Part shown: positions 11,681-52,924 of the stretch, in pieces
Position numbering within the stretch: the first letter of the stretch is position 1
How the letters are laid out: each line of letters starts with the position of its first letter
Origin: a virus
Lineage: Duplodnaviria; Heunggongvirae; Uroviricota; Caudoviricetes
Length of the DNA: 64,000 bases
Virus record (IMG/VR): IMGVR_UViG_3300037312_000757
Strand: one strand, 5' to 3'
Notes under the pieces: generated by a model
Databases searched by the model: none
What the model saw: only the letters and a program-made list of their open reading frames with translations
What the model was told of the DNA's origin: nothing
Position numbers and translations under genes: made by a program

Positions 11681-11684
11681 TGGA

Positions 11685-17143: not shown

Positions 17144-17184
17144 AATACCAAGTATCGTCGTATATAGTTTACTTGGTATTTATT

Positions 17185-19115: not shown

Positions 19116-19203
19116 GTTGTTTTCTCCTGTTACTGCTATAGATCTAGCAGGTACTGTATTTATGCGTATTTCTGTGATATTTAACTATCACAGAAATCAT
19201 ACG

Positions 19204-19232
19204 AAAAAGGCGGGGAAAGCCCCCGCCTTTTT
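19204..19232. terminator. intrinsic terminator
   Basis: AAAAAGGCGGGG-aaagc-CCCCGCCTTTTT. Confidence 0.85.
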
Positions 19233-19248
19233 ACTACCTTAGATCAGC

Positions 19249-21120: not shown

Positions 21121-21225
21121 TGCAAAACTCCTAGAAGTTATTTTTCTCCGAATTGGAAAAGCGAGATGGCAATCTCGCTTCCAACTCTACCGTTATTTAT
21201 GTGATGACCTCGAGCAATAAAATGC

Positions 21226-35789: not shown

Positions 35790-36190
35790 TTGGCTTTTTT
35801 GTCAGTAGTCGCTGGGGTTGCCACCGCTTGCGGGGTGCCACTTTGTTGCGACTTTAACACATCTGCCAAATAATCAATAGTCTTCTTTTGTTCGAGAATG
35901 TATCGACGAAGTTCCTGCACGTTTGAGATCATGATCTCCATATTGGAACGATCAAGTACGTAGAACTGGGCCGTAGGGTTGGCCTGAAGTTGTGACTGGA
36001 AAGTACCAAATGTTTGCGCAGTAACCAACTGATACTTCATGTTTTGCAAGTTAGTTGGTGTAGGAACAGGGATTGAAACTGGTGGACGATCAGCAATCGT
36101 AGTCACTGCGACTGGTTGCTGTGTTGCACAACCAGCCATAACGGCAACTGCGCCAATTACTGCCAGCCATTTACTGACGTGACGCATCAT
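35786..36190 (-). CDS. o-spanin-like lipoprotein
   Basis: Lipobox VMAGC followed by a Pro-rich segment; overlaps the i-spanin end. Confidence 0.7.
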   Translation of the reverse strand: MMRHVSKWLAVIGAVAVMAGCATQQPVAVTTIADRPPVSIPVPTPTNLQNMKYQLVTAQTFGTFQSQLQANPTAQFYVLDRSNMEIMISNVQELRRYILEQKKTIDYLADVLKSQQSGTPQAVATPATTDKKAK

Positions 36191-36614
36191 TTACATCCTG
36201 AAAAAGTTGATTGATGTTTGTATTGATCTGGCTTTCTGCCTCAGTTGGCTTTGACTTAACCAGATTCTGATACTGTTGACTGTTGAAAGTAGTCGAAACC
36301 TTGTTGGAATTCATACGGATTTCAGCAATCTGCTTGTTATAGCTGTCAGTCAAGATCTTCAGGTTAGCCAGATCACTCTTCATCAAAGCCTGAGCCGCAT
36401 TGGCTTGGTTGATGGCGATCTGTTGTGCTTCAATCTGCTTTGTCAGAGTGTCAATCTTGTTCTGCTCATAGCTGAGGTACCATCGAACGCCGAAGAATCC
36501 AGCAACAATGGCTCCCAGGAAAAACAGCGTCAGGTATAGCTTGGCACTGGTGAAGATAGCTCCGATCGGGGTTGCCTTTGCAGCAACTTCTACGGCTTCT
36601 GTAGTTACGCTCAT
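36171..36614 (-). CDS. i-spanin-like protein
   Basis: Single N-terminal TM followed by a long coiled coil; late motif upstream. Confidence 0.7.
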   Translation of the reverse strand: MSVTTEAVEVAAKATPIGAIFTSAKLYLTLFFLGAIVAGFFGVRWYLSYEQNKIDTLTKQIEAQQIAINQANAAQALMKSDLANLKILTDSYNKQIAEIRMNSNKVSTTFNSQQYQNLVKSKPTEAESQINTNINQLFQDVNDASRQ

Positions 36615-36724
36615 AATTTGCTCCAAAAATATGGTCCCGGTATTTATGCCGGGACCCTTACGTACAGCTTACATTTTGTTACGATTGCGGAAGCTTAGAA
36701 GATCAAAGCTCTTTGATGGTTACA

Positions 36725-38668
36725 TTATGACGCCAAACCCAAGAGTGTTACTGATACTGATGCAATAGTCGCATCGGCTGATGCTGGTGCGGTAACCGTC
36801 AGCACTTGACCAGGACTCAACGAGAACGATGAACTTGCAGTAAATGTTGCAGTATTCGATCCAGCGGCAAATACCATTGTGCCAACGTCTGTGCCATTTG
36901 CATTAATCGTGAACGTAGTTGATGCGGTTGGAACAACGGCTGCATAACCTTGAGAGTTGGTCAATCCAGCAGGGAATGTTACGGTGCGTCCACTAACAAA
37001 CTGAACAATCAGTTGATTTGCAGCAATTGCACCAAAAGCGCGATCTTTCACGTCATAGTATTTCTGTGCCTGAACAAACGCTGTTGTGGCCAGTGTGGTT
37101 GAGCTATCAGTCAGACGTGGCGTTGGAGCAGTTGGAGAACCGCTGAATGCAGGGCTTGCCAATAGAGCACCACCAGCATTTGCAATATCTGCTTGTTGAA
37201 GAGACACGGCCCCGGCACGTCCATTAAAAGATGTCACAGCGCTACTGGAAATAGCAGTCGCAACGAATGCAGTTGTTGCCAGATTTGCTGAATTATCCCC
37301 TGCCGCTGGTGTAGGTGCTGTTGGTGTGCCACTAAAAGCTGGACTCACAATATTCGCTGGTGTGAAGCCAATAGCGGTAGTCACGTCATCCGACGTCAAC
37401 GTAACAGGACCCAATCGAGTATTGAACGAGGTCACTGAGTTGTTCGCAATTGCAGACTTAACGAACTGAGTATTCGCCAAGACATGTGAATTATCAGCAG
37501 CTGACGCCGTTGGTGCAGTTGGTGTACCACTGAATGCTGGCGAAGCCAACAATGCACCACCCGCTGAAGTAATGTCGTTACCATTGAACGTAACTGCACC
37601 AGTACGGGTATTGAATGATGTTACTGCACCAGATACAGCAGTTGATACAGCTGATGTAACGAATTCTGTTGTTGCAATCTGAGTTGTGTTTGTGCCTGCC
37701 GTCGCAGTTGGAGCCGCTGGAGCTCCAGTAAATGTTGGTGATTCAATCAAAGCACCACCAGCATTAGTCAAGTCAGCAGAAGTAAGCGTAACGTTACCGC
37801 TTCGTGTGTTAAACGAAACCACACCCGTCGCCGCCGGCTTGTTGATCAGATCATTGTAGTCACCTGAGTAAGCCGCATTTGCAAGGAACAGACCAACCCA
37901 CTTGCTTGAATTCTTGTCAAACGCCAAAACCTTCTTGTCATCGGCGGCTGTTTCTGTGACATTTACGTCGGTCAAACCTGAAAGAGCACTAACGGTTGGC
38001 ACAGTCAAAGTTCCATCTGCGGTAATGTTTACACCATTACCAGCCTTGACGCCACCAAGGATAGTGTTCGTAGCAACAGGAAGAGAATATGGCGCTGGGG
38101 TGTTTGCAAGGTCAGTGTATGATCCTGATGTTGCCACCGCAGACAATGATGGCAAATTCTGCAAATCTGAGTAAGAACCAGTCTTTGCCACCGCAGCCAG
38201 TTGTTGAGCCACCCATTTTGTTTGGCTATTGCTGAATGCTAGGAAATATCCGTCAATACTTGCACCTTCCGTCACTAGAACGTCAGTCAATTGCTCAAGT
38301 TGCTGCGCCCCCGAATCGATATGCAAGTTTGCAATAGCGCTTGTAACAAATGCGGTGGTAGCAATCTGTGTTGAGTTAGCACCAGGTGTTGCAGTGGGTG
38401 CTGTTGGAGTACCAGTAAAGGCTGGCGAATTGGTTCCAATCGGAGTATAACCAAGTGCGAGGGTCACGTCTGAGGATGTCAGAGTAATATCACCCCTACG
38501 TTGGTTGAAAGAAGTAATACCACCAACCTGTACCATTTGGCCAGTAGTTCCATTCTTCTTGACGATATAAAGCGCACCATCAGCATTGTTGATAGCAATG
38601 TCAGTGAGTGCCATCTGGCTTGGTGCTGGAACTTCACCAGACACCAATGAATTTCTAATAATACCCAT
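36725..38668 (-). CDS. tail fibre protein
   Basis: Repeated SPAF(S/T)G.PTAPT...ATTAFV and VTSFN.R.G.V.L units. Confidence 0.8.
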   Translation of the reverse strand: MGIIRNSLVSGEVPAPSQMALTDIAINNADGALYIVKKNGTTGQMVQVGGITSFNQRRGDITLTSSDVTLALGYTPIGTNSPAFTGTPTAPTATPGANSTQIATTAFVTSAIANLHIDSGAQQLEQLTDVLVTEGASIDGYFLAFSNSQTKWVAQQLAAVAKTGSYSDLQNLPSLSAVATSGSYTDLANTPAPYSLPVATNTILGGVKAGNGVNITADGTLTVPTVSALSGLTDVNVTETAADDKKVLAFDKNSSKWVGLFLANAAYSGDYNDLINKPAATGVVSFNTRSGNVTLTSADLTNAGGALIESPTFTGAPAAPTATAGTNTTQIATTEFVTSAVSTAVSGAVTSFNTRTGAVTFNGNDITSAGGALLASPAFSGTPTAPTASAADNSHVLANTQFVKSAIANNSVTSFNTRLGPVTLTSDDVTTAIGFTPANIVSPAFSGTPTAPTPAAGDNSANLATTAFVATAISSSAVTSFNGRAGAVSLQQADIANAGGALLASPAFSGSPTAPTPRLTDSSTTLATTAFVQAQKYYDVKDRAFGAIAANQLIVQFVSGRTVTFPAGLTNSQGYAAVVPTASTTFTINANGTDVGTMVFAAGSNTATFTASSSFSLSPGQVLTVTAPASADATIASVSVTLLGLAS

Positions 38669-38677
38669 TTGCTATCC

Positions 38678-39844
38678 TTATGCGAATGTTGAGTTCATTG
38701 AGAACCAAGTTGCACCGTCAGAACAGAATACCAACTGTGATTGGTTAGGCATCGAGAGACCCACGTTCACAGCTTGGTAATTCACGTAATTACCAGATGG
38801 TGGGTAAACAATGATTGTCTGGCCAGAATTGTTCACAACAAAGCACGTCGCACCAGCAACGGCTGATGGCATAATCACACCAGCATTTGCAGCACTTGCG
38901 CTAGTCACAAAACAGCATTCTGTTGTCATAGCTGTGGCGGTGCCTTGAGTTGTGCCCGCTGCCGCATACGTACTGTTTGAACGAATTGTGCGGGCGGCGA
39001 ATGTTGTCGTAGTTTGGAAAGTGGTACCGGCCGTGTTAGAAAACGTAACTTGTGGCACTGTATTACATGTGATACCAAACACACCATCTGAAATATGGTA
39101 CAAACCCGTATCGATCGCACCATCATTCACGAACGACAGACCAGGAGCACTAGCTGAGCCTTCAGGGATATACACACGACCTGTGAAAGTTGGATTGGCC
39201 AGTGTCGCGTAATTGCTTGGTGTGAAGTTACCAGCATCCCACGCCAGATTGCCATTGAATGTAGGACGTACTGATGTGTTGATTGCGGTAACCGCATTAC
39301 CAGAACGAGTTGCAGACAACCAAGGTACACCAGTTGTCCAAGCATCGTCAATCGTACGGAAAGACAATACGGTGGGACTAGTGTTGATATCCCATTTCTT
39401 GGAATCGGTGGCGCCAGAGCCATTAATTAGTAGGACTGAACCGCCGCCGTTAACACCAATTGACGTAGCTGAAGCACTCTGGGTGGTATAAAGACCACCC
39501 GTGAAATTGGTAAGACCAGTAAATGTGCCAGTAGTACCAGAAATAGTGCCACCGGCAATATTTGCAGTTATGGTACCAGCTGAGAAGTTACCAGACGCAT
39601 CTCTTGAAACAATCGTATTTGATGTTAGGTTAGGAGTCGCGTTTGTGCTCACTTGGATAGTACCAGCACCGTTTGTCAGTGAGATACCATTTGCCCCTGT
39701 TAGCGAACCAACGGACCAACGATTATTTGTGGCGTCACCGATCATCAACTGACCGTTATTTGGGGTAGAGCCACCAACACTTGTAATGTAGCCTGAAATT
39801 TGCAGGCCATTGTTTACGACAAAATCTTTTGTATAGACTGTCAT
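38678..39844 (-). CDS. tail fibre protein
   Basis: TIVSRDASGNFSAGTITA, WDAGNF.P, GSASAPGLSF..D..DTG; N-terminus shared with 39947..41554. Confidence 0.75.
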   Translation of the reverse strand: MTVYTKDFVVNNGLQISGYITSVGGSTPNNGQLMIGDATNNRWSVGSLTGANGISLTNGAGTIQVSTNATPNLTSNTIVSRDASGNFSAGTITANIAGGTISGTTGTFTGLTNFTGGLYTTQSASATSIGVNGGGSVLLINGSGATDSKKWDINTSPTVLSFRTIDDAWTTGVPWLSATRSGNAVTAINTSVRPTFNGNLAWDAGNFTPSNYATLANPTFTGRVYIPEGSASAPGLSFVNDGAIDTGLYHISDGVFGITCNTVPQVTFSNTAGTTFQTTTTFAARTIRSNSTYAAAGTTQGTATAMTTECCFVTSASAANAGVIMPSAVAGATCFVVNNSGQTIIVYPPSGNYVNYQAVNVGLSMPNQSQLVFCSDGATWFSMNSTFA

Positions 39845-39946
39845 TTGATTTCCCTTTCCATCAAATGTTTAAGTCAGTTATTTATTAACTACCACGTTAT
39901 AGTCAGACGTAGAAAGAGCGAGTATTCCTACTCGCTCTTCATTTGA

Positions 39947-41554
39947 TTACGCTACTAGCAATGTGGCTACTACAGTTACCGTCATAGCAGTGGATGATGC
40001 AGGAGTGAACATCAATGACCAGGTGCCTGTTACGATCTGTGCAGAGAATGAACCAAGCGTACCATTTGATGCAATGATGTCATACGTTGTCAACCAGATG
40101 TTTGTCGCATCAGTAATCATCATGACCTCGCAGGACTGGATATTGTTTGATGCATCCACCACCTGAACCATAAACTTGGCAGTGCTTGAAGTCGTAACCG
40201 CGGTAGAATACACTGCTGTTGGTGTGGTTGATGAAGTAGAAGTAGTTGCTGTATCTAGTGTCGCCTTCTCGATCTTCACTGGGCCGTTGAAAGTAGCGCC
40301 GCCACCGCCTGGTGTTACACCAGCGTTGGTCAGAGCAGTTGTCACAAACGCTGTTGTGGCGATTGATGTGTCGTTATCACCAGCTGCTGGAGTCGGAGCA
40401 GTTGGGTTACCAGTCAATGCTGGGCTTGCCAGAGGAGCAGCACCTGATACGTCTGCCACTGCAAGAACAACGTTACCAGTACGACCTGCCACCGTGACCA
40501 CGTTTGCAGTCAATACACCAGAGCCGTTTACCGTCAGACCAGTGCTGACTGATACTGCACCAACAGCTGACGATGTTGCCAGAGGCATATCAGCAGAAAC
40601 CAATGTGCGGTATGCCACCGCACCATTTGCTGATGAAGGAGCAGCCAGGAATGTGTTCTTTGTTTGGTTACCCCAAGCAGTGATCATATCGGTGGACAAT
40701 AGAATCACGTCTCCGGTACGATCAAACACTGATGTCACTTCTGATGCTACACCATCAATCTTGTCCCATGTGGAACCATTAAACGCGATAATATCGCCAA
40801 TATTCCACTGGGAGATACCGTCGATCGGCGTGGTGCCAGCCACTGAAACTTTGTACATCCAACCCTTTGTACCAACACCACTAGCCAATGATGGTGAGTT
40901 GGTTGACGCGTTCCAAGTACCCTGATAATTCAGACCGCCAACCACGGCTGGAGGCATCTGGCCCATAGGCACGTAGCCGCTTGAATCCAAGCTCGCCACC
41001 CCTCCGGCTACCGCGATGACGTTCGGGTTGACTGGTGTGTAACCAAGCGCACCAGTGACGTCTGATGACTGCAGAACGACTGTTCCTGTGCGACCAAAGA
41101 CTGTTTGGATTGGCGCTGCGGCAGAAGCACGAGCGTTAGTAAAGTACAGGTTTGTACCTTCTGCCACGGCAGAAGTTGTAAAGCTGATGTTTGCTGTACC
41201 GTCGAATGACACACCATTGATAGTACGCGCGGTTTGGAGCTTTGCTGCAGATGTTGCATTGCCTGACAGTGCAGCGGTGATTGTACCAGCTGTGAAGTTA
41301 CCAGACGCATCACGTGAAACAATTGTCGAAGCAGTATTGTTTGATGTTGCGTTTGAAGTCAGAGAGATGGTACCTGGGCCAGGCGTAAAAGTCAGACCGT
41401 TAGTTGCGGTCAGGCTACCAACCGAGAAGCGACCGTTTATTGCATCGCCGATCATGAGCTGGCCGTTTGTTGGAACGACACCGCCTACGGATGTGACATA
41501 TCCACCAAGCTGCAAACCATTTAGGAGAACAAAATCTCTATTGTTCGTTGACAT
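39947..41554 (-). CDS. tail fibre protein
   Basis: A.KLQTARTINGV.FDGTANI, EGTNLYFT, YQGTWNA, PALTG.PTAPT motifs. Confidence 0.8.
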   Translation of the reverse strand: MSTNNRDFVLLNGLQLGGYVTSVGGVVPTNGQLMIGDAINGRFSVGSLTATNGLTFTPGPGTISLTSNATSNNTASTIVSRDASGNFTAGTITAALSGNATSAAKLQTARTINGVSFDGTANISFTTSAVAEGTNLYFTNARASAAAPIQTVFGRTGTVVLQSSDVTGALGYTPVNPNVIAVAGGVASLDSSGYVPMGQMPPAVVGGLNYQGTWNASTNSPSLASGVGTKGWMYKVSVAGTTPIDGISQWNIGDIIAFNGSTWDKIDGVASEVTSVFDRTGDVILLSTDMITAWGNQTKNTFLAAPSSANGAVAYRTLVSADMPLATSSAVGAVSVSTGLTVNGSGVLTANVVTVAGRTGNVVLAVADVSGAAPLASPALTGNPTAPTPAAGDNDTSIATTAFVTTALTNAGVTPGGGGATFNGPVKIEKATLDTATTSTSSTTPTAVYSTAVTTSSTAKFMVQVVDASNNIQSCEVMMITDATNIWLTTYDIIASNGTLGSFSAQIVTGTWSLMFTPASSTAMTVTVVATLLVA

Positions 41555-41568
41555 GAATTAATCCTCAA

Positions 41569-42222
41569 TTAAGTCGTGACATAGGTCGCCACAATGGTTA
41601 CCTTCTTTGTGGACGCCGCTGTTGCTTGGAAAGTCAGAATCACATTACTACCTGACATGGATACGTCGAATGATCCAAGAGGGTTTTGGGTAGTCACCAC
41701 CGCAAAACCTGTCATATCCAATGTTGAACCGTCCGTCACAACCAAAAGCTCCTCTGAGTGGAAAGCATTGGTTGAGGTATCTTGAACCTGGCACATGAAC
41801 TTAACCGTACCACCGGTTGTCGTGTTGAATGTATAGACGGTTGTTACTGCTGTATCGGTAACTGAAGTTTGTTGAGTATCAATGGTTGCATTCTTGACGC
41901 TCAAAGCACTACTAAATGAACCACTTGAGGAGTTAGCGGGGACATAGCCAAGAATGGTACTGATATCACCTGCCGTGATAGCATGCCATTCGAGTGTATT
42001 GGCTGTTGTACTAACTCTGAGGAAGGATCCAGTGGTTGCACCCGTGGCTGGCCAAATCTGGCCATTCAATGCCACTGCACTTGTTGAGAGTTGCAGAGGA
42101 GCTTGCAAACCAGTTCCGTCCTCGACCAGACGTAGGATACCATCTAAGCCACCATTAGTGTTGTTGAGTGTCAACAACGACTTAAAGGTGGAAGCAGGCG
42201 TCTTACCTGAAAGATTTGGCAT
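41569..42222 (-). CDS. fibre adaptor-like structural protein (paralogue family A)
   Basis: N-terminal LL.L.N...GLD..LR.VEDG.G module shared with 46045 and 51832; C-terminal domain similar to that of 39947..41554. Confidence 0.65.
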   Translation of the reverse strand: MPNLSGKTPASTFKSLLTLNNTNGGLDGILRLVEDGTGLQAPLQLSTSAVALNGQIWPATGATTGSFLRVSTTANTLEWHAITAGDISTILGYVPANSSSGSFSSALSVKNATIDTQQTSVTDTAVTTVYTFNTTTGGTVKFMCQVQDTSTNAFHSEELLVVTDGSTLDMTGFAVVTTQNPLGSFDVSMSGSNVILTFQATAASTKKVTIVATYVTT

Positions 42223-42254
42223 TTCTTATCTCCTCGAACGATTAGTGATATTTA

Positions 42255-42610
42255 TGCCAAGTTTAAGGAGTTCTGCCTGGGTTTGATAGACTCAGACTAT
42301 TATCAGTGAGTAATTGATAGTCTTATAACCTCCATGAATATTCCTGGAAGGATGACAATATCTTGGTATCTTCCTCAGAGATGGTTGATAGGAGGAAGTT
42401 ATTGAGTATAACCACTATGGGGAATTTGTGGAGTTCTCTCTGGGTTTCGTAATCATCTAGAGTGTTGATTGATTAACCTCCATGAATTGTCCTATGAACA
42501 ATTGATCTCATAGATGGTTATATCTGAGTTGTTTGTGGGGAAGGAACCACTAATGGGGATATGGTTATGTGGGAAAGCCACCAGTGGATAGTGGCTTTGT
42601 TGTGTGGGGA
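42255..42610. repeat. non-coding G/T-skewed region with short repeats (CTCAGA/TCTGAG, TAACCTCCATGAAT x2, AACCACTA(A)TGGGG x2)
   Basis: Repeats read directly; no credible ORF. Confidence 0.55.
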
Positions 42611-43051
42611 TTACAGTTTTGTTTTGAGTAATGGACTCAGATATAGGTCACGTGGAGTGACTCTGTTCAGTTGTTGTGCGTTCAGCAGTGGGGTGTTGAT
42701 GTATTCGAAGCCGGCGGCGATGAGTTCTGAGCAGAACCATCGTTTGTCGTTATTCCAATCTGATCTAAATGGCATTCCTGCGATAGCCATGAAGTCATAT
42801 GGTTTGCCGATTTGGTTGTAGAACCAGGCCATCAGGGATTGTTCTAGTTCTAGTGGGAGTTCGATGTATCGGATTTCTTCTTTGATGACTGGGGTGTAGT
42901 TCCAGGGGCGGATTTGGACGCCGCCATTAGCTCGTGCTCCTAGCCATCCTTCTAATGTTTTGACGTCGACGTGAGACCAGTCGCCCCAAGTCCAGAATTT
43001 GATGAATTCTGATACTGGGCCTGTGCCGTCTACGAAGCGGATTTCGATCAT
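42611..43051 (-). CDS. permuted papain-like amidase (YiiX/YebB-type NlpC/P60)
   Basis: WSHV, GKPYDF, WFCSEL with His preceding Cys. Confidence 0.85.
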   Translation of the reverse strand: MIEIRFVDGTGPVSEFIKFWTWGDWSHVDVKTLEGWLGARANGGVQIRPWNYTPVIKEEIRYIELPLELEQSLMAWFYNQIGKPYDFMAIAGMPFRSDWNNDKRWFCSELIAAGFEYINTPLLNAQQLNRVTPRDLYLSPLLKTKL

Positions 43052-43135
43052 AGTTGATCTCCCCAAGTTGTTTTTCCTTAAAAATATTTATGGGGAATTC
43101 GGTCGAAATGAAGTACTCAGATAATGCGTGGATGG

Positions 43136-43168
43136 TCGAAGAGCCACTCATAATGAGTGGCTCTTCGA
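43136..43168. terminator. stem-loop after the FliD-like gene
   Basis: TCGAAGAGCCACTCA-taa-TGAGTGGCTCTTCGA, perfect 15-bp stem. Confidence 0.75.
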
Positions 43169-43183
43169 GAATAGTTGGTAGAC

Positions 43184-43783
43184 TTAGATCTGGATAGTTT
43201 GTGTGATGCCAACTGCTTGTTGGTTAACCACCAGAGTGTAGTTAGGAATCACATCTTTGATCATGTTTGTTGGGCTGTCGATAGCTACACCATTTACGGT
43301 AAGAGCTGCATCGCAAGCTGCGAAAGTTTGAGTCCAAGATGTTGGAGTGTAAATTGACGACATTGTGCTAGTTGTCGATGTGACGGACAAGCTGGAAATA
43401 CCATTATCGTTTGAGACATTAGATACAGTAATATTGATTACATTTGACACGCCGGTAGTCAAGCAAGCCAGAATTAAATGTGTGCCATCTGTACCTGGCA
43501 GCGCATATGCGATCAAATGTTGACTGAGTGGTGACGCATTGATTGCTTGGATGATGCCAGCAATGGTATCGTTTGTTGAATCAATAGTTATCTCAACGCT
43601 TTGTGAATTCACGGAGATATTAAGTGTGCCATTGCCCAATTGTGCTTCTGAACTAAAAGCAGCAGATGTCAGGGTTTGAGCTTGCGCCACTTGTGTTACT
43701 TCGACGTTATATGATGTTGTTGGAATTTCAGCAGCAGGGATCAGTTGAATTCCGGTGCCATTAATAATTGAATACGTGCTCAT
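43184..43783 (-). CDS. flagellar cap protein FliD (HAP2) middle/head-domain homologue
   Basis: Y.VEVTQVAQAQTL.S..F, LG.GTL.I, IDSTNDT.AGI..AIN.S, GTDG.HL.L...TG..N.I, A.DA.LTVNG..I.S.TN.I.DVI...TL correspond to FliD D2-D3 segments; both coiled-coil termini are absent. Confidence 0.75.
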   Translation of the reverse strand: MSTYSIINGTGIQLIPAAEIPTTSYNVEVTQVAQAQTLTSAAFSSEAQLGNGTLNISVNSQSVEITIDSTNDTIAGIIQAINASPLSQHLIAYALPGTDGTHLILACLTTGVSNVINITVSNVSNDNGISSLSVTSTTSTMSSIYTPTSWTQTFAACDAALTVNGVAIDSPTNMIKDVIPNYTLVVNQQAVGITQTIQI

Positions 43784-43864
43784 TTTAAACCTCTAGTTAG
43801 TAGGGAATATTTATCCAAAAGAAAAGAGCCATCCTTAGGATGGCTCTTTATACCTCATATCTGT

Positions 43865-46033
43865 TTATGTTGCTTTGATTACGAACTTTGTGAATGGCAA
43901 AGCAGAAGGAATCAAAGGAGTGCGATATGATGTGGTGTCTGGTACCAGGAAGTTGGTGATGTTATTATTACCACCAGCGATTGATAGCATACCGTTATTA
44001 CCCATAAGCGTCCAAGATTGGATCATGTCAGAGGTGGTACCAGTAACACCTTGGCTCCAGTTAATGCCGTCATTGCCATACCAATAGCTACCGCCACCGC
44101 CGTAAATCACGAAGTAACCGTTGATATAAGCGACGCCCTTCGCGTTAGTTGAAATTGGTGCTGGGAAAGTACGTTGAACCCAAGTATTACCACCGTCAGA
44201 TGAGTAAACGTAAGTTGAGTTGCCTGATGAGTTGATTGTCAGCAGAGCTTTGCCGTTACCATAAGCTACGCCGGTGATAATGGCACTTGTAATTGAAGTG
44301 ATACTACCGGAAATCCAAGTTACACCGAGGTCGTTTGACACTGAAACACCACCACCAATAACGGTAATGTCTACCAGTGTATTTCCAAGACTGAACATCG
44401 TAATACCAGTAGTGGAACCAACAGAGTTGTTGTTTGGCCAAGGCATTGAAGTTTTTGCTACTGTGGTGACACCGTAGTCGGCAGTCATTACGAAGTTAGC
44501 CCCGATTTGACCACCAATAAAAATGTTTTCGCCAACATTACATACGGATGATGGGACCCAAGTTAGTGTAGGTGAGTTTATTGTCCAGTTTACGCCATCT
44601 GATGACGAAGCAATAAACACACCATTACCAGTAACTGGTGTACCCCACAAAATAAATTTTGTTGGGGTCACGAATGCTTGGCGCCAGTAAATAGGCACAG
44701 TTTGGCTTGTGATAGCTGAATATGTCCATGAAGCACCGCCATTAGTGGTGATAGCTACTGGAACGGAAACAGAAATTTGGTTAAATTGTGTGTTTTCGAA
44801 TGTGATCCATGTATTACCAACACTCATCATTGGATAGAACACTGGTAATGCCGTTGTCATAGTCAGAGGAACAATACCACCCAATGTTGACATGTCATTT
44901 GTCCAGTTTACCACAATTTGAGCACCGCTGGCATAATAACCTACGTTTACAAGTTGATTGCCGTAAACATGAGGGCTACCAAATGCTGTTGTGAAGAACG
45001 GGCCGCCGGAGGTATACAACGAAGCTTTAGATGTCCAAGTAATACCATCTGTTGAATACTGTGTGTTAGTCGTAGTGGCGTTAACAATAGTAACAATCAT
45101 CGCACCATTTGTCATAACTTCTACGTTGGCAAACGTGTTGCTGATTGCACCAGTGCGAGCAGTCCAGGTAACACCATCTGGTGAAGTATTGATGGTTGTA
45201 GATGCCGTGCCTGATGGGCCAACAAAGATAGAGAGTACTGAATTCCAACGGAGTGATGAAAAGCCTACTGTTGGACCACTGCGAACAGTCCAAGTTGTAC
45301 CATCTGGTGAAGTAGCGGTGTTATTAGTGCTAGTACCAGAAGTAACATAAACCCATGATGAACCGTTCCAATCCAAGCCTTTTGGGGTATATGTGGAAGT
45401 TGTACCAACAGTAACTGATGCAAATGTTACACCATCTGTACTTTTATAGACAACGTTATTGGTACCGTTTGTGTACTGAGCCAAATAAACGCCATTACCG
45501 TAACGAACAATACCAACAAAGTTGCTAAGTGGAAATGTAATTGAGGTTGCTGAAGACAGATTTAAATCTGAGTACATGTACCAAGTTGTGGAACTCAGGA
45601 ATGCAACATAGATATTGCCATTCGCCACGTTGATACTGTTAATCGTTGTTACGCCTGATGGGAATGTCAAAGTTTTCAGATAGGCGAGAGATGACAAATT
45701 ACCACCAGTTGTTCTGAACACTACACCAGTTAGACCAATAACAAAATATTCGCCACCGTAAGAGAAACCGATTGGGTTAGAACCCATATTATTGGTCGTG
45801 GCCTGTTTTGGCAAAGCTGATGGAATGCTTGTCTTTGTCCAATAGTCACCCATAAATGTTGGGGGAGTAATGGCAGCCAGAGCAGGATATGTAGAGGCGC
45901 TAAACTTAGCGCCGCTATCCACATAATTTGAATTTGAAAAGCCTGTTGGTACTTGCAATAGTTGGCCTGTTACAAGTGTTGAAGCACTAGTGGAAGCATT
46001 GCTTACTGAACCACCAAATGTAGAAATACCCAT
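43865..46033 (-). CDS. beta-propeller (BNR/Asp-box repeat) tail/receptor-binding protein
   Basis: Many S.DG.TW Asp-box repeats. Confidence 0.75.
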   Translation of the reverse strand: MGISTFGGSVSNASTSASTLVTGQLLQVPTGFSNSNYVDSGAKFSASTYPALAAITPPTFMGDYWTKTSIPSALPKQATTNNMGSNPIGFSYGGEYFVIGLTGVVFRTTGGNLSSLAYLKTLTFPSGVTTINSINVANGNIYVAFLSSTTWYMYSDLNLSSATSITFPLSNFVGIVRYGNGVYLAQYTNGTNNVVYKSTDGVTFASVTVGTTSTYTPKGLDWNGSSWVYVTSGTSTNNTATSPDGTTWTVRSGPTVGFSSLRWNSVLSIFVGPSGTASTTINTSPDGVTWTARTGAISNTFANVEVMTNGAMIVTIVNATTTNTQYSTDGITWTSKASLYTSGGPFFTTAFGSPHVYGNQLVNVGYYASGAQIVVNWTNDMSTLGGIVPLTMTTALPVFYPMMSVGNTWITFENTQFNQISVSVPVAITTNGGASWTYSAITSQTVPIYWRQAFVTPTKFILWGTPVTGNGVFIASSSDGVNWTINSPTLTWVPSSVCNVGENIFIGGQIGANFVMTADYGVTTVAKTSMPWPNNNSVGSTTGITMFSLGNTLVDITVIGGGVSVSNDLGVTWISGSITSITSAIITGVAYGNGKALLTINSSGNSTYVYSSDGGNTWVQRTFPAPISTNAKGVAYINGYFVIYGGGGSYWYGNDGINWSQGVTGTTSDMIQSWTLMGNNGMLSIAGGNNNITNFLVPDTTSYRTPLIPSALPFTKFVIKAT

Positions 46034-46044
46034 GATTTAATCCT

Positions 46045-46917
46045 TTAGAAACCAGTTACCATAATCGACATATTGGCACTGGAACCAATAACTGTCACTG
46101 TCCAGCCCGCCGGCAGAACTGTAGAAAGATCACACAGAAGTGTTGTATTCGCCGAAACGGTCACATTGTTCAGATACGCATTCGCTGCACTAGCTGCACC
46201 ACCATTTGTGAAGTTCACAGAAATAGTCTGATCAGAACCAGATGAGTTACAAATGATCAATGAATTGACAGTTTCAGTCTTACCTGTTGGGACTGTATAT
46301 ACGACTGTAGAAGAGGTCGGCATCGCACCAAAGTACAGGCGTTGAATGTTTGAGGAGCCATTGCCAGAAACGTTAATAGTGACGCCAGTAGCACTTGCCG
46401 AACCCACTAAGCTACCACCATTGAGAATAACCATCTCAGTTGAAATCACCACAGTCTGGCCAGCAGCCACAGAACCATTTGAGAAAATAGCATTTGCAGC
46501 ACTAGCAGAACCACTCTGAGGAACAATATTTAGATTAACTGTAATGGCTGAACTAGTAGTATTCACCAATGTGATCTGAGTGAGCAACGTATCCTGACTA
46601 GCAGTTGCCAATGTAGCAGATGAAGTACCCAATACACCCTGATATGTCAGAACTGGAACTACTGATGACCCATTGGCGTTTGACCATGTCAATTGATTAC
46701 CAGTGCTTACTGACAATACTTGACCAACACCAGGTGTGACTGTAGGCCAAATCAGACCATTCAGAGCAATCTGAGTGGATGAAAGACTGAGAGGAGCAAC
46801 AGTACCATTGCCATCCTCCACAGTACGAAGCGTTGAGTCAAGTCCTGCACCCGTATTAGTGAGCTTCAACAACTCCTTATACGAATCCATCACTCGACGA
46901 TTGAATAATGATGGCAT
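46045..46917 (-). CDS. fibre adaptor-like structural protein (paralogue family A)
   Basis: Start MPSLFNRR with AGGAGG RBS; YKELLKLTN...GLDSTLRTVEDG.G module plus two tandem beta domains. Confidence 0.7.
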   Translation of the reverse strand: MPSLFNRRVMDSYKELLKLTNTGAGLDSTLRTVEDGNGTVAPLSLSSTQIALNGLIWPTVTPGVGQVLSVSTGNQLTWSNANGSSVVPVLTYQGVLGTSSATLATASQDTLLTQITLVNTTSSAITVNLNIVPQSGSASAANAIFSNGSVAAGQTVVISTEMVILNGGSLVGSASATGVTINVSGNGSSNIQRLYFGAMPTSSTVVYTVPTGKTETVNSLIICNSSGSDQTISVNFTNGGAASAANAYLNNVTVSANTTLLCDLSTVLPAGWTVTVIGSSANMSIMVTGF

Positions 46918-46979
46918 TCTTTCCCTCCTAATGAGATATAATACCATCAATATTTATGGTGAACCTTACAGGATATTAC

Positions 46980-48900
46980 AACCACTATTGCTCAGAAGAA
47001 CTATATACCATCTTCCTCCTCAGAGGAAAGAACTCTCCATCCTCAGAGGAAAGAAACATGGCACCCGAGATTCTTTTAGAAAACTCGAAATTCTTTTAGA
47101 AATCCCCCTATAACGACCTTCCACCCGAGATTCTTCAATTCTCCCTCAGAGGAACCAACTACCATCCTCAGAAGAAAATACTAACCACCTCCACCCCTCG
47201 AGGAATCCTCAGAGGAAAGAACTCCAATAACCATCTTCCCTCAGAAGAACATAACCACAATTTCTTATACCCTCAGAGGAAAACCACAAAAAACATTTAC
47301 CAGCCACTAAAATCAATTACAAATCACACTTATGGCTTAAAATCAATTACCACCCTCAGAGGAAAGAACCGGTCATATACCATCCTCAGAGGAAGATAGT
47401 TTGTTGAATACATTTCCTCAGAGGAACTATCTTTCCTCCTCAGAGGAAGAAACCTGGTTTACAACTTGAATGCCACTTTTCCCCGAAAGAGTCCTACCAA
47501 GTTCACAAAAATATTGACGACACAGACAAAGAACACTATGGTGACGTGATTTTCGTTAATATGATGTACACACGGCGTCATCCTTTTACCATCTTTGATT
47601 CATCCTCAGAGGAAAAGATGAACTTCATCCTAGTTTCACCATTTCACCTACTGTTTCGTTATCGTGAATGACAGTTGGTGACGGTTCGCCTAACCGTTCA
47701 AATACTGTTCCATTACGAAAAAACGCGTCATCGCGGTATCGTTAACATGGCATTGAATAAGCATTGCTAAATATCATCACGAATATTTCATTCATGCTTC
47801 AAAATGTGTTCTAAACGATGCACCATGTTCATATTCCTTTCATCCTCTGAGGTTTCCTCAGAGTCGCTATCTGAGTTGTTCCTCTTCCTCCTCTAGTCTT
47901 TTCATTCACTCATTCTGTCCTCTGAGTAATTTTCATTACCACAGTTTCTAATCCTCTTTGATCTCTGAGGATTATCACTACTGTCGCTCTCATTGCTTTT
48001 ATTATCTGAGTTGGTATTGCTGTTCTCTTAGGAAAAAGTCTGTATTTAATTTTGCGTCTTTTAGTGACGTATAACAGTGAGTGTTATCTGAGATGTGGTT
48101 ATCTGAGAAATGGTCGGGGCCATTATTCTTGATATTGGTGATTTTCAAGTCTGAGGTGGTATTATCATTTAAGCTCTGAGGGATTTTCGCGGTGAAGTTT
48201 TTCTCAGAATTGCGGTAATCATCTGAGTGGGTGTTAAGTTCTTGGTGATGTTTGCGCGGGAAATTTATTTGGTAGCTCCTTCAGATTGGCTTTTCTTTTC
48301 GCGCGTGGTATTTGAATTTTGCGGAGAATTATTTCCAGAATGGTGCGGAGAATCGAACTGTGATTATGATGAAAACCTTTGAAAACCGTAGAAGAGCCTT
48401 GGTGGGGAAGCAGTGTGGGATCTGAGTGCAGAGCTGAGCGTGGTAGCGGAGAAGCGTGGTGAGCCTTGTGCGCGTGATGGTGCGGGAAATGATGTGAGGA
48501 GAATGACCCATAGAATGGGGAAGAGAATGGGGAAGGGAATTGGCTCTTGCGCGTGGGGAGCATTTTCCAGAATGAAGTCTAGAATGGGAGGGTGAAAAGA
48601 ATCATTTTGCCACTGAAATTGGGGAATGGCTGTATAAAAATTTCGCCAGCTTTACGCCAAATTTCGGGATTTAGGGTTTTGGCCCGAAAGACTTCCTGGA
48701 AAAAGCCAAAATTCTGGTCGCCGTGAAATCGTGAATTCCAGAAAATGACATGTCAAGAAATCGCCTATGGAGCGATTTTCACGTTTTCCAGAATGAGTCT
48801 AGAATTGAGTCAGAATATCATCTAGAATGAAACCAGAATAGAAACAGAAACCGCCATACCAGCCATCTACCACTCTTTCACCAGAATATCTTCTATGGCG
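46980..48900. repeat. ~2 kb non-coding locus with oppositely oriented CCTCAGAGG / TCTGAG repeats and a skew switch; candidate replication origin
   Basis: Ten exact CCTCAGAGG copies at 47018-47612; about 11 reverse-oriented TCTGAG copies at 47844-48426; AGAAT repeats at 48500-48890. Confidence 0.8.
47514..47542 (+). promoter_or_regulatory. sigma70-like promoter inside the non-coding locus
   Basis: TTGACG-N17-TATGGT with no downstream ORF. Confidence 0.4.
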
Positions 48901-48985
48901 AATTTTTCTTTGAAATTTTCTTTTGAAAGAATGGGCCATTATTAATGGCCCATTTATGCAGCAAGATAGTTAGTATTACAAACTA

Positions 48986-49555
48986 TCAAGTGGTTGGTAG
49001 ATTATATCCATTAGCGTCTGGTTGATTGGAACCTACTGGTGATATCCATGTTACGTTTGTGATTTGATCGTAATCGGTCATAGCATTTATTTGAGTAGCC
49101 AGAGTTGCCTTTTGTTGTAGGCAGGCCAGTATTTGTGCTTTACCGTCTCTGCCTACTTGTTGGATCTGGGTGGTGTTGTGACTAAGATATGACCAGGTAT
49201 TGGTTGAGTTAGCGCACCAGAATGGGGTTGACCAGGATGTTTCGTTTGCTTGGACTGCCAGTACTGAGTCGAGGACTGAGGCTGAGAGGTTCTGTTGGTC
49301 CAGGTCTTCAGCGGGATAATGTAGCCAGGTTCCTGTAGCGTTTGAGTTGAAGCCCAGATAGATTTCGCTCTTGCAGGCGTCGTTCATCTGTTGGATCTTC
49401 CATGCTTTGTGATCGTCTAGTGAGTAGATTGGATCTGGTGTATTGCCATCGGATAGCCATGTTTCGTAATCATCCCAGTGACGAGAGCCTTGCGGGATGA
49501 TTTCATTTGTATCCTCGTTGATAACGATAGTTGGATCTGCTGTTAGTTTGTACAT
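48986..49555 (-). CDS. tail fibre assembly chaperone-like protein (DUF4376-like)
   Basis: Y..WL.DGNTP.P; YP...DQ.NL; FWC; H...QIQQVG.D; downstream of a fibre gene. Confidence 0.7.
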   Translation of the reverse strand: MYKLTADPTIVINEDTNEIIPQGSRHWDDYETWLSDGNTPDPIYSLDDHKAWKIQQMNDACKSEIYLGFNSNATGTWLHYPAEDLDQQNLSASVLDSVLAVQANETSWSTPFWCANSTNTWSYLSHNTTQIQQVGRDGKAQILACLQQKATLATQINAMTDYDQITNVTWISPVGSNQPDANGYNLPTT

Positions 49556-49567
49556 AGTTAGGAGTCC

Positions 49568-51832
49568 TTATAGATCAGCGTCAGCGGTGGCGTGGATCAC
49601 ATAGGTATTATTAGCCGCGATTGTGGTTGGTGTGCCTACTGTTACGCCTGCTGCTGATATCTTTGAAACTGGTAGAGTTTGCGCCTGTACTGCGCCTGAA
49701 AGATTTGTCCAATATGGGGTCGAGTTATTACCGACTGTGTAGAGCGTTACGGTTGGTAGTCCTCGCATTGGTACATCAAATGACCAGTTAGCCCATTGTG
49801 AGAAGCCGGTTGAACCTTGGCTGATTGTTAGAGGTGTAGAGTAGATACCAGTGTTTGCTGCTGGTGTGGTAGCAGTTGGGAATGTTTTGCGGTAGAAGCG
49901 CAGACACTGCATGATTTCTTGATGTGTAGTTTGCACCATGTATGGTGTTGCTGCTGGTCCTGCTTCCAGTTGAACCTGTACCAGGTAGAATGAGAATGCT
50001 TGGCTTGTTGGTAGAACGAATTGGAGTGCCAGATAATCGTTACCGTTTGTACCGAGCGTGCCTGTTGTGGTTGGTAGGTTGAATGTGGCGGTTAGACGTG
50101 TGAAAGTTGAGCTGTTAACGGTAAAGTATTGAGTTGGTGTAGTAACGGTTGGTGATGGAGAACCGCCTGTTCCGAAGCATTGTGCTAAGTTTACACCAAG
50201 CTGGAATGAGCTTTGGGAACCAGCACCAAGAGCGACGCTGAATGAAACCGTACAAGTTTGACCGTTCAGAACGTAAATGCCTTCACAGCGGTGACTCAAC
50301 ATCAAAGATGTGAGGTTTGGGGCCACTGTTTGATTCCAAGAATACACACCGTATGGTCCAAGAGATGCGGTGAGACCAGCTGGTTGTGTTCCGGCCAGTG
50401 CTTGGCCGATCGTGAACGTGCCTGGTGATGTGCCCGCGTAATCAATGCGCCATTTGTCTGCCGTGTATGTACCTGACGCTGGAGTTGTCCAAGAGTTACC
50501 ACGCTGCCAGACGTCAAATTGGCCATTCAGAATACGATTTCTGCGGTACGGGACTGACTGAACAAATGCGGTTGAAGCAATTGAGTTATCGTTCTTCCCT
50601 AGTGGGACCACATTTGTCATTGTGTTGGTGATGTTCACACCTGAAGAATTCGAAATCACTTCTGACGAATCACCTGGTGTGATCAATGTGGTATTCGCAT
50701 TACCATTTGAAAGAACCAGTGAAAAACCGCCTGTGGTATTGTTGACGACTATCCACCATCCTTGTGATGGGAGAGTGACAGTTGCATTAGCGGTAAGTGT
50801 TCCTGAAATCTGCAGACAGGCATAATTGTATTGATTTGCAGCCAATATCGTATCGCCTGAAATTGTTATTGCAGTGGTACTGTTGCTCACTATCTGAACG
50901 AATTGTGTGGTTGCAATTTTGTGGCTGCTATCACCAGCTGGTGGTGTTGGTGCTACTTGGCTTGAAAGGAAAATACCGTAAGTATTGTGTAGGATTGCGA
51001 AACAAGACTCACCAGGTTGCAAGGTTAATGGTGAACCTGCTCCATTCGACATGACGAAAGTAATAGGTTGTGAACCACCATTCCAGAGAGTTGCCGAATC
51101 TGATTGACCAATACTTGGTGGTACTGATGGAAGCGTAATCGTTGCTGCGGTTGAACCCTGGAAATACAGAACTGAATACGCACATTCGTCTGGGGTCAAT
51201 GTCAGGTCACCAGTAACCGTAAAGGTATTCACCCCAGTTAATACTTGGGCAAGCCATCCCATGCTAACTGGTGCGAGACTAGGACTTAGCAGTGTGGTGG
51301 CGGGAACAACTGAGTTTGAGAAAGCCAATCCGGTACTCAAACCAATAACAGGTGCAACTGATGATTGCGGAATTACGATCGAACCGCCATTTGCAGTCGT
51401 TAGGGTAATAGAAAAAGCACCTGATGTTTCATTAACAACTAACCATTGACCTGCATTTGGTAGCGTAACAGTCACATTAGTGGTAAGAGTTCCGTTCAAA
51501 ACGATAGTGCTAGAACCAGCTTGGGCGGTAGACAGAATCACATTAGCGTTTGATAGCGTAATGTTTGATACACCTTTGGCTATGTTTTGAACGAACGCCG
51601 TGGTAGCGTAAAGAGTAGAACTGTCACCAGAAGTAGCTGTAACGCCGGTTGGTGAATTCATACCACCATAGGCGAGTGAATTCCAGGCTGTTGTGCCGTC
51701 TCCGATTTTGAAGTATTTGGTGTCAAGCTCAAGACCCAGTTCGCCTACTGCTAGAATCGGATTTGATGCTGTCCATTGTGCCGCATTTTGTCTGCGGAAT
51801 TGAATAGTGCCTTGATATGTGAATGCTGCCAT
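49568..51832 (-). CDS. tail fibre / receptor-binding protein with Mtd_N-like N-terminus
   Basis: IQFRR..A..W...NPIL..GE.G.E.DT..FKIGDG...W..L.Y; RNRILNG.FDVWQRG carbohydrate-binding-like domain; QLE.G..ATP. Confidence 0.8.
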   Translation of the reverse strand: MAAFTYQGTIQFRRQNAAQWTASNPILAVGELGLELDTKYFKIGDGTTAWNSLAYGGMNSPTGVTATSGDSSTLYATTAFVQNIAKGVSNITLSNANVILSTAQAGSSTIVLNGTLTTNVTVTLPNAGQWLVVNETSGAFSITLTTANGGSIVIPQSSVAPVIGLSTGLAFSNSVVPATTLLSPSLAPVSMGWLAQVLTGVNTFTVTGDLTLTPDECAYSVLYFQGSTAATITLPSVPPSIGQSDSATLWNGGSQPITFVMSNGAGSPLTLQPGESCFAILHNTYGIFLSSQVAPTPPAGDSSHKIATTQFVQIVSNSTTAITISGDTILAANQYNYACLQISGTLTANATVTLPSQGWWIVVNNTTGGFSLVLSNGNANTTLITPGDSSEVISNSSGVNITNTMTNVVPLGKNDNSIASTAFVQSVPYRRNRILNGQFDVWQRGNSWTTPASGTYTADKWRIDYAGTSPGTFTIGQALAGTQPAGLTASLGPYGVYSWNQTVAPNLTSLMLSHRCEGIYVLNGQTCTVSFSVALGAGSQSSFQLGVNLAQCFGTGGSPSPTVTTPTQYFTVNSSTFTRLTATFNLPTTTGTLGTNGNDYLALQFVLPTSQAFSFYLVQVQLEAGPAATPYMVQTTHQEIMQCLRFYRKTFPTATTPAANTGIYSTPLTISQGSTGFSQWANWSFDVPMRGLPTVTLYTVGNNSTPYWTNLSGAVQAQTLPVSKISAAGVTVGTPTTIAANNTYVIHATADADL

Positions 51833-52230
51833 TACGATGTTCCTCCGTCTATGACGACAATTTGGTAGAACAATGCATTGGTACTCGCATCCCCGCCGTC
51901 AAAGTTCAAAATTGGTGTGTTTACCAGATCATTGTAGTCACCACTTGTAGCCACATTTGCCAATCCATTTATGTCATTTGCGATCAAACAATGCCATTCA
52001 AAGGCATTGTTTGCTGGATTGATTCTTAGAACTTTGTTTGCGGCGAAGCCATTTGCCGGTATATGATAACCGTAAAGGCCAATTGCGTTGGTGCCTAGTT
52101 GAAGACCTGAAGGATTTCCTGCGCCATCTTCAACATTTCTGAGCGTTGCATCTAAACCAGTACCAGGATTGGTGACTTTTAGGAGTTCCTGATAAGCAGA
52201 ACTAGGCGAACGCCCTTTGAGAGATGACAT
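51832..52230 (-). CDS. fibre adaptor-like protein (paralogue family A)
   Basis: Start MSSLKGRSP; YQELLKVTN...GLDATLRNVEDG.G; LANVATSGDYNDL. Confidence 0.7.
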   Translation of the reverse strand: MSSLKGRSPSSAYQELLKVTNPGTGLDATLRNVEDGAGNPSGLQLGTNAIGLYGYHIPANGFAANKVLRINPANNAFEWHCLIANDINGLANVATSGDYNDLVNTPILNFDGGDASTNALFYQIVVIDGGTS

Positions 52231-52331
52231 TAAAAGCTCCTTTATTTTCACATATTTAGCAACTATTTGTTGTCAAAATTGCAATAAAAAGGGCTCCCGT
52301 TTGGGAGCCCTTTTCTAGTTAGGAGAACTTA

Positions 52332-52826
52332 TTACCAGCTGATTGCCATGACCGTTGCTGAGTCAGTAGCGGACATGATCTGATTGATGAGATCTTGCTT
52401 CTTTGTGAGGATGGCATTTACGCCTGTGAAGAGGTCAGCACCTGCTTGTTGAATCTGTGGAATGCCGTGCTGAAGATAAGCCCAGACGCCGCTTGAATTT
52501 TGCACTAGCATTGGCATTGTAGTTTGACCTTGCAATTGTGGCAGCATTGATGCGGCTACGACTGAATTGTAATGTACCATGTCTGAGTCTTCGCCTGAAT
52601 ATGTGTATGTTGAACCCAGTGCATTTGACGTGATACCAGCTGCTTTCGCAGTGTCTGCAGCAGAAACGATGATGCCATATTTGTATTGCTGCGCGTCTGC
52701 CAGAGCGATTGGTTCTGGAGTATTACCATCAGCCAACCAAGCTTGGTAATCACCGTTTGAAACGTCTACGTATGAACCATCGGTCAGATTGATGACGGTA
52801 TTTTGATCGGTCGTAAGTTGGTACAT
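52332..52826 (-). CDS. tail fibre assembly chaperone-like protein (DUF4376-like)
   Basis: YQAWLADGNTPEP; H...QIQQ.G.D. Confidence 0.7.
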   Translation of the reverse strand: MYQLTTDQNTVINLTDGSYVDVSNGDYQAWLADGNTPEPIALADAQQYKYGIIVSAADTAKAAGITSNALGSTYTYSGEDSDMVHYNSVVAASMLPQLQGQTTMPMLVQNSSGVWAYLQHGIPQIQQAGADLFTGVNAILTKKQDLINQIMSATDSATVMAISW

Positions 52827-52924
52827 GATATTCCTTAAAAGTTTGTGGCTTCGAGAGCCTCATCTATTTAAACTAATGAATGAAAAGAGCGATCATTCGA
52901 TCGCTCTTTGAAAGTAAGCTCTGT

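Follow-up and report, generated by a model that had tools for sequence, protein, structure and literature searches.

A free-standing D2-D3 head of the flagellar cap protein FliD encoded as a cassette in the tail-fibre module of a probable jumbo myophage

Both the signal for flagellar export and the site that binds FliT lie in the termini of the full-length flagellar cap protein FliD. In native caps, the D2-D3 heads of FliD form an outer star-shaped plane in which each D3 lies stacked against the D2 next to it (PMC12221982). Although exposed, this head is not essential: D2-D3 proved "entirely dispensable" for capping and exchangeable for tags or for heads from elsewhere, and compatibility with the filament is set by D1 and the terminal helices (PMC8533109). 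FliD-D3-like domains also decorate the sheaths and other virion proteins of contractile-tailed phages, such as the InD of the Vibrio phage XM1 sheath (PMC10457771) and the lateral domain of Pakpunavirus/phiTE-type sheaths (PMC12846349). Each of these plug-ins is a single domain of ~90-100 aa that forms part of a sheath, nozzle or capsid protein, and their kinship with FliD is by structure only. Jumbo phages of the Atu_ph07/Phosso/RaK2 supergroup have been called "hairy", and their many fibres are thought to help attachment (PMC7824862).

Here we describe a phage gene that encodes a complete D2-D3 head as a protein of its own. The protein shares with the bacterial heads (5FHY, P. aeruginosa; 5H5W/5H5V, E. 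coli; 5XLJ, S. marcescens) the same two-domain fold and arrangement (TM 0.80-0.90), and with Burkholderiaceae FliD heads a collinear homology over the whole 199 aa (41-47% identity) and the same K/R-poor, S/T/N-rich make-up. Unlike bacterial FliD, it has no D0/D1 and hence no capping or flagellin-chaperoning parts, and its gene lies in a fibre cluster, not beside fliS/fliT. Like the plug-ins, it places a flagellar outer-domain fold in a contractile-tailed phage, but it is a complete, free-standing D2+D3 with clear sequence kinship to the FliD of one bacterial family, and Foldseek matched it only weakly to plug-in sheaths (E ~0.015-0.03, TMq ~0.3). As with morons and late accessory cassettes, the gene forms a terminator-bounded unit with a promoter-like element (in this phage) and is present or absent at one exact site; classic morons, however, are prophage-expressed genes of temperate phages, whereas this gene carries a late/structural motif in an apparently lytic, T4-related jumbo phage. 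As with the T-even gp38 adhesins and the Mu/P2 Tfa proteins, it directly follows a fast-evolving fibre gene and shows co-elevated divergence, but it has no sequence or fold relation to them, does not always accompany the fibre gene, and gave no Tfa/gp38-type match in PHROG or Pfam. The literature yielded no account of a phage with a free-standing FliD head; in one survey of rumen viromes, fliD appears among the automatically labelled AMGs (PMC11740651). The original prediction, a reading of the DNA without database searches, knew of no such phage system; this stands for the free-standing two-domain head but not for single FliD-D3-like virion domains, which have been described (PMC10457771, PMC12846349). 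The free-standing two-domain head appears to be new, and flagellar outer domains on phages and late-region host-gene cassettes are known kinds. The fold kinship of flagellar outer domains and phage surface domains was already known; what the locus adds is a datable, sequence-level link, with the whole FliD head of one bacterial family kept as a separate gene in the adsorption cluster of soil jumbo phages.

The gene was examined in a window of 64,000 nt (the whole stretch of DNA analysed, from IMG/VR record IMGVR_UViG_3300037312_000757), in which it is arranged with its neighbours as follows.

42611..43051, minus strand: downstream neighbour, gene for a ~146-aa permuted papain-like (YycO/C92-type; amidase) protein, assigned by Pfam/PHROG matches
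43136..43168, minus strand: second hairpin of the same sequence type (15 bp), after the FliD-head gene; right cassette boundary
43184..43783, minus strand: FliD-head coding sequence, 199 aa (P0001), ATG start, assigned by sequence and structure matches
43790..43793, minus strand: GAGG, Shine-Dalgarno-like, 7 nt 5' of the ATG, read from the sequence
43808..43814, minus strand: ATAAATA, candidate T4-late-promoter-like motif, its function suggested by 7-mer enrichment and placement
43823..43849, minus strand: intrinsic-terminator hairpin (12-bp stem and U-run) after the BNR-propeller gene; left cassette boundary
43865..46033, minus strand: upstream neighbour, gene for a 722-aa BNR/Asp-box double beta-propeller of fibre/receptor-binding type, assigned by Atlas structure matches
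46045..46917, minus strand: conserved gene for a 290-aa protein of fibre adaptor type, the first of the module, assigned by its orthologues and shared N-terminus

The original prediction had named a 199-aa ORF with its own TAAATA late promoter and a strong downstream hairpin, inserted among tail-fibre genes, and every one of these elements was found where it had placed them. The ORF is real, with an ATG start and the GAGG 7 nt upstream, and the TAAATA 6-mer lies 5' of it at 43808-43813. The hairpin at 43136-43168 has 15 bp and a folding energy of -26.6 kcal/mol (z -7.95) and lacks a U-run. The flanking genes are of tail-fibre type. The 722-aa upstream protein matched BNR, Sortilin-Vps10 and PSII_BNR clusters of the Atlas at TM 0.61-0.63 and was nearest by features to viral fibre clusters; it is hypervariable, with 34-52% identity among five lineages. 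The downstream papain-like gene, which likely starts at the ATG at 43051, matched Pfam PF05708 weakly and phrog_1128 at E 2.8e-26, and its protein is 70-76% conserved within the phage clade. Phage homologues of this (151-aa) gene were mostly from Ralstonia phages, and that of Ralstonia phage RSA1 lies directly after the tail-fibre genes, i.e., in a post-fibre accessory slot. The 290-aa adaptor shows 72-82% identity to its orthologues in the related loci L001, L120 and L121, and its N-terminus is common to the 217-aa and 139-aa fibre proteins. The N-terminal anchor common to the cluster's fibre genes is absent from the FliD-head protein, on whose own N-terminus no signal peptide was read.

The ATAAATA motif occurred 14 times in the window against 6.06 copies expected, a count reached by 0 of 100 shuffles. 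Thirteen of the 14 copies were on the coding strand, and 11 lay ~15-45 nt 5' of an ORF start. All genes preceded by the motif are of fibre/structural type (K+R 2-6%, S+T+N 22-36%), and none of the window's replication or chaperone genes has it. The bare TAAATA 6-mer was not enriched in the window (31 copies against 24.6 expected). In L001, ATAAATA was present at orthologous sites yet absent before the FliD-head gene; it was likewise missing from the FliD-head leader of a third locus, L122, and these two loci share another conserved leader. The late promoter of the original prediction therefore holds in part: a motif of the structural-gene family is present in this phage, but it is missing from the homologous leaders of L001 and L122.

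By its gene content, the window belongs to a ~520-kb jumbo myophage of the Atu_ph07/Phosso/RaK2 type. The contig of the FliD-head protein itself is ~524 kb long, and the T4-type DNA polymerase of the window is 53% identical to that of Sinorhizobium phage Phosso (469 kb), 49% to that of Agrobacterium phage Atu_ph07 (490 kb) and 43% to that of RaK2. Besides a long series of fibre genes, the window has genes for a DNA ligase and for a Clp-type ATPase (phrog_4871, "ATP-dependent protease").

The 199-aa protein was then compared with FliD in sequence and structure. The collinear D2-D3 similarity to FliD/HAP2 that the original prediction had recognised proved to be far beyond chance. A phmmer search of PDB sequences matched six FliD entries, collinear over residues ~21-186, the best being 5FHY of P. 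aeruginosa (E 1.3e-9) and the D2-D3 structure 5XLJ of S. marcescens (E 9.8e-9). BLASTP against residues 102-310 of Paraburkholderia rhizosphaerae FliD gave 34% identity (E 2e-22). An HMMER search of 1.84 billion cluster representatives returned 712 proteins at E<=1e-3; the top matches were 41-43% identical and covered positions ~100-300 of ~500-aa FliDs, and those that were named were Paraburkholderia FliDs. The motifs quoted in the original prediction are visible in alignment A3. A single-sequence AF2 model (pLDDT 43) was set aside, and a model from a 45-row alignment was used (pLDDT 92.4, pTM 0.85); since this alignment consists mostly of bacterial FliD heads, its confidence says little about phage-specific changes. 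Foldseek ranked FliD D2-D3 structures first (5fhy, E 5.6e-14, TMq 0.80), with 35 PDB chains at E<=0.001 and, among the matches listed, FliD entries throughout. Supportively, the ESM Atlas aligned 198 residues of the protein to a FliD cluster with TM 0.90 and an rmsd of 2.0 Å.

The legs of FliD were looked for in the same way. Pfam FliD_C (PF07195) scored 18 bits against a cut-off of 25.4 and aligned at profile positions 1-37 of 236 only, and FliD_N (PF02465) did not match the protein. When seven full-length FliDs were searched against the 64-kb window by tblastn, only their residues ~92-310 matched, and the rest of the window gave nothing at E below 0.08; the same search of L001 likewise found the head segment only. 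No flagellar gene neighbourhood surrounds the gene, its neighbours being phage fibre genes. Because homology and fold cover D2-D3 and only the head segment was matched by full-length FliDs, the 199-aa protein is a cleanly excised D2-D3 head with both its start and its end at the D1/D2 boundaries, and the proposed loss of the D0/D1 legs is borne out.

Searches for relatives of the stand-alone head gave no match in 50,697 phage records (tblastn), no family in PHROGs, no match in BFVD (whole-protein TMq <=0.42), no phage match in large ESM Atlas clusters and no related locus in IMG/VR, and a scan of metagenome contigs returned bacterial-type fliD fragments only. A large protein collection, however, contained a cluster of "215-aa" proteins under the JGI label flagellar hook-associated protein 2. 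The most widespread member (P0157, the L001 type) was present in 52 collection blocks on contigs of up to 522 kb, and 24 contigs with the L001-type protein were read. The L001-type proteins are probably 187 aa long, with their true start at the ATG 28 codons further in, since the N-terminal extension overlaps a terminator hairpin. The 522-kb contig of L001 is syntenic with the window: adaptor, BNR, FliD-head and amidase genes are followed by more fibre genes and then by DnaJ, peptide deformylase and the Clp-type ATPase. Further lineages were fetched through the conserved amidase gene. Of these, L122 has a FliD-head gene in the corresponding position, with a product of 190 aa (E 1.5e-26 to the protein of L001, E 2e-12 to a bacterial FliD). 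In L120 and L121, where adaptor, BNR and amidase genes are likewise present, no gene separates the latter two. Amidase homologues in L118, L119 and L123 lie in other contexts, without a FliD head. Three short FliD-like proteins (P0067, P0102 and P0149) were considered as phage heads and rejected, as they look like frameshifted or truncated bacterial genes.

Three lineages (window, L001, L122) thus carry the cassette, and two (L120, L121) lack it at exactly this site. In a DNA alignment of the empty sites, the stop codon of the BNR gene is followed by a single hairpin (AAAGAGCCA..TGGCTCTTT), then by the conserved segment CATTATCTGAGTACTTCATTTC and by ATAAATA, and finally by the amidase gene. 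The filled sites have the same hairpin type twice, bracketing leader and ORF. In the window, hairpin 43136-43168 is followed by the conserved CATTATCTGAGTACTTCATTTC..ATAAATA segment, just as the single hairpin of the empty sites is, and the type of hairpin at 43823-43849 is the sole hairpin at the empty sites of L120 and L121. L001 also has hairpins on both sides of its FliD-head gene. Filled and empty sites are therefore a clean insertion/deletion polymorphism, which illustrates how cassettes enter and leave the fibre module between duplicated terminator hairpins. In the 535-aa fibre gene, L120 is the lineage closest to the window (77% identity); since L120 is empty, the cassette was probably lost at least once or else moved laterally.

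To place the phage heads among bacterial FliDs, a genome search pattern was built from an alignment of the top matches, which had themselves come from the unbiased HMMER search. The best 80 matches, with one genome per species, were all from Burkholderia, Paraburkholderia, Caballeronia or Trinickia, with identities up to 46-47%, and the best bacterial matches, at 41-47% identity, were all from Burkholderiaceae, in agreement with the Burkholderia-type FliD of the original prediction. Careful ML analysis united the two phage heads in a clade (94/93), which was attached through a basal polytomy to the main group of Burkholderiaceae (90/74); when L122 was included, the three phage heads formed one clade (93/91; 92% of bootstrap trees). 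A quick tree had nested the phage clade inside Burkholderiaceae, but this placement was not retained, as a constrained tree with the phages outside was likelier (p-AU 0.87), and the AU test did not distinguish a position "inside" the Burkholderiaceae rows from one "beside" them. By sequence, then, the phage heads are placed either with the main group of Burkholderiaceae FliDs or at its base. Their branches are long, at 0.7-2.6 substitutions per site; the median over all terminal branches is ~0.37, and most Burkholderiaceae branches stay well below 0.3. By branch length, phage heads diverge at 5-10 times the rate of bacterial ones. Genomes of Burkholderiaceae exceed 60% GC. The GC content of the FliD-head gene, ~42%, equals that of its flanks, which argues that the capture is old. 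We regard the identity of the phage FliD head and its history as a single capture by the clade ancestor as practically certain.

Next, the constraint on the gene was assessed. Between the window and L001, the FliD-head genes gave pS 0.66, which is saturated, and dN 0.56, so that dN/dS is at most 0.35; the conserved neighbours gave 0.13-0.21 and the BNR gene 0.41. Neither a stop codon nor a frameshift interrupts the ORF in the three lineages, and the family-core residues are kept in the window's head. An intact ORF in three lineages with saturated synonymous sites, together with dN/dS <=0.35, speaks against the neutral decay that would have undone the original prediction. Among near-identical L001-type variants, three synonymous and three non-synonymous substitutions were counted, which are tiny counts. 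Judged from these substitution patterns, the FliD-head gene is under purifying selection yet fast-evolving. Fast evolution is usual for host-interaction genes. The FliD-head gene and the upstream BNR gene are the fastest-evolving of the module.

What the protein does can be narrowed from its parts. Because D0/D1 is missing, it should be unable to cap a filament, to be exported through the flagellum or to bind flagellin. Its S/T/N-rich, K/R-poor composition resembles that of fibre proteins, and an adaptation to the fibre was considered on this ground but rejected: Burkholderiaceae FliD heads have the same make-up, so the composition is inherited and is no argument for a fibre role. We tentatively favour, at somewhat less than even probability, a role as an accessory surface/adhesion module of the fibre apparatus, because the gene lies in the fibre module, has a structural promoter motif in this phage, diverges at a BNR-like rate and is dispensable in sister lineages. 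The D2-D3 head was captured once by a jumbo-myophage ancestor and has since adapted fully to phage base composition. As a discrete cassette of leader, ORF and hairpin, it is inserted 3' of the BNR terminator and 5' of the fibre-associated papain-like gene. The head would most likely be made late, together with the fibre genes, and may serve as a non-essential accessory of the virion's fibre apparatus that contributes to adsorption or host range, like the FliD-D3-like surface decorations of other phages. These plug-ins are the most plausible functional analogy, and by this analogy the phage head would probably be exposed on the virion surface. Several observations go against the fibre-module reading: L120 and L121 do without the head, so that the BNR fibre and the amidase can evidently function in its absence; the late-promoter motif is not kept in L001 and L122; no fibre anchor is shared; and the 3:3 substitutions in the L001 population fit weak constraint.

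A more specific role, unlikely in our estimate, is that of an assembly or tip accessory of the upstream BNR-propeller fibre in the manner of gp38 or Tfa. In all three lineages the gene is directly downstream of the fibre gene, and the two genes evolve fastest within the module. L120 and L121, however, have orthologous BNR genes without a FliD head, a terminator separates the two genes, and the fold is unrelated to known fibre chaperones.

About as improbable is that the phage shows a copy of the host's flagellar tip on its own fibres as a functional mimic for host finding. Such a head might bind what the cap binds (root, fungal or mucilage glycans), much like the "adherence to mucus" by capsid Ig domains, or alternatively might dock onto the cap itself and start flagellum-guided adsorption. 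If this were true, it would be a case of host-organelle mimicry for host finding, with natural lineages with and without the gene as controls. The docking form, in which a free or virion-borne head binds the host cap ring by D2-D3 stacking, or competes for cap binders, and so either starts a flagellotropic adsorption pathway or blocks competing flagellotropic phages, was given a slightly lower probability still. The head derives from the FliD of the probable host family itself, its gene sits in the cluster of the adsorption apparatus, and head-head contacts exist in principle because D3 stacks on the neighbour's D2 in native caps (PMC12221982). Against this, the D2/D3 stacking surfaces are already occupied in the assembled pentameric cap, the phage heads have diverged to 28-47% identity on very long branches with no sign of a host-matched interface, and related phages lack the gene.

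Similarly doubtful is that the gene is a passenger, a captured fragment with little or no function that has been kept by chance and is on its way out. Absence from two of the five comparable lineages, fast evolution and the 3:3 ratio of non-synonymous to synonymous changes among near-identical L001-type variants fit such a passenger. It accords poorly with an ORF kept intact in three lineages despite saturated synonymous sites, a between-lineage dN/dS of at most 0.35, retained family-core residues, the conserved leader of L001 and L122, and a pLDDT of 92, although the alignment behind the latter is dominated by bacterial FliD heads.

Least probable is interference inside the cell, in which the protein would poison cap assembly or flagellar regulation and halt motility during infection: the lack of a signal peptide would keep it cytoplasmic until lysis unless it were built into virions, and the cassette is moron-like with its own hairpins, but the export and FliT-binding termini are missing, so it cannot reach the filament tip or titrate FliT, and the promoter motif is of the structural-gene type, not early. 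The dominant-negative cap poison of the original prediction is disfavoured for a further reason, as capping, flagellin compatibility and the oligomer-leg contacts have been traced to D1 and the terminal helices, and loss or exchange of the head leaves function intact (PMC8533109).

The close relatives with filled and empty sites are a clean natural experiment on what a flagellar-cap head binds. The contigs that aligned to the window were near-identical and held no usable variation, and no RNA runs were listed among the sequencing runs matching the sequence. Near-identical DNA was found in two rhizosphere runs from two studies, one of which may be where the window itself comes from; its very high depth there hints that an enrichment or an isolate exists. 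For this uncultured jumbo-phage clade, the head gives a clue to the host, Burkholderiaceae; the hint at a flagellated betaproteobacterial host fits the Burkholderiaceae matches of the head, the Ralstonia-phage homologues of the neighbouring gene and the rhizosphere origin of these runs.

The cassette that carries the FliD-head gene (leader, ORF and hairpin) was flanked on both sides by copies (n = 2) of a terminator hairpin built from the same words, AAGAGCCA..TGGCTCTT or AAGAGCGAG..CTCGCTCTT, and hairpins of these words were found repeatedly between the fibre genes of the window. Recombination between the two bracketing copies could lead to loss of the cassette. The features concerned are as follows.

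Window 43823-43849, 43136-43168 and also 39914-39939: terminator hairpins with common words
L001 10040-10084; L122 4275-4317: conserved leader 5′ of the FliD-head ATG
Window 43865-46033; L001 7675-9972; L120 2775-4871; L121 2785-4878; L122 2034-4193: BNR/Asp-box double beta-propeller fibre protein gene
Window 42611-43051: permuted papain-like (YycO/C92-type) protein, ~146 aa
L118 5779-10438; L123 5791-10435: TerD/TerD/TerC/vWA-TerF/TelA cluster (tellurite-resistance type)
Window 37324-37776 and 54128-55900: contig joints and small indels in contigs of two runs

L001 and L122, the related phage loci with a FliD head, shared a leader (AATCATAAT..AAAGGAAAACAT) before the FliD-head ATG. The T4-late-promoter-like ATAAATA motif was absent from this conserved leader in both loci, and the leader may represent another, putative promoter class.

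On one side of the cassette, the BNR/Asp-box double beta-propeller protein retained just 34-52% identity across five lineages (the window, L001, L122, and L120 and L121, where the same site is empty), with 54-82% for the genes flanking it in the same lineages. The BNR-propeller gene is hypervariable and of receptor-binding type. On the other side, conservation of the papain-like protein was 70-76% across the five syntenic lineages and 54-69% to three relatives further off. Its named-phage homologues were chiefly from Ralstonia phages; that of the P2-like phage RSA1 occupies the post-tail-fibre slot and is annotated as "enoyl-CoA hydratase-like," probably a misnomer.

In L118 and L123, two jumbo-phage relatives further off, the tellurite-resistance-type cluster adjoins the amidase (papain-like) homologue. 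In the P0179 locus, from a 523,572-bp relative, the amidase homologue is preceded by a stretch of ~2 kb in which no genes are called, reminiscent of the window's own non-coding repeat region at 47-49 kb.

Over window 36000-55900, two "rhizosphere metagenome" runs, X1 and X2, contained near-identical sequence at a word depth of ~1,500 in one and 6,000-26,000 in the other; such depths suggest that the phage had been enriched or isolated rather than being scarce in the community. In the contigs of these runs, joints, a step back of 181 bases with 17 inserted letters, and small indels fell within fibre and LamG genes; these are either repeat-driven assembly variants or true length variants of the fibre genes.
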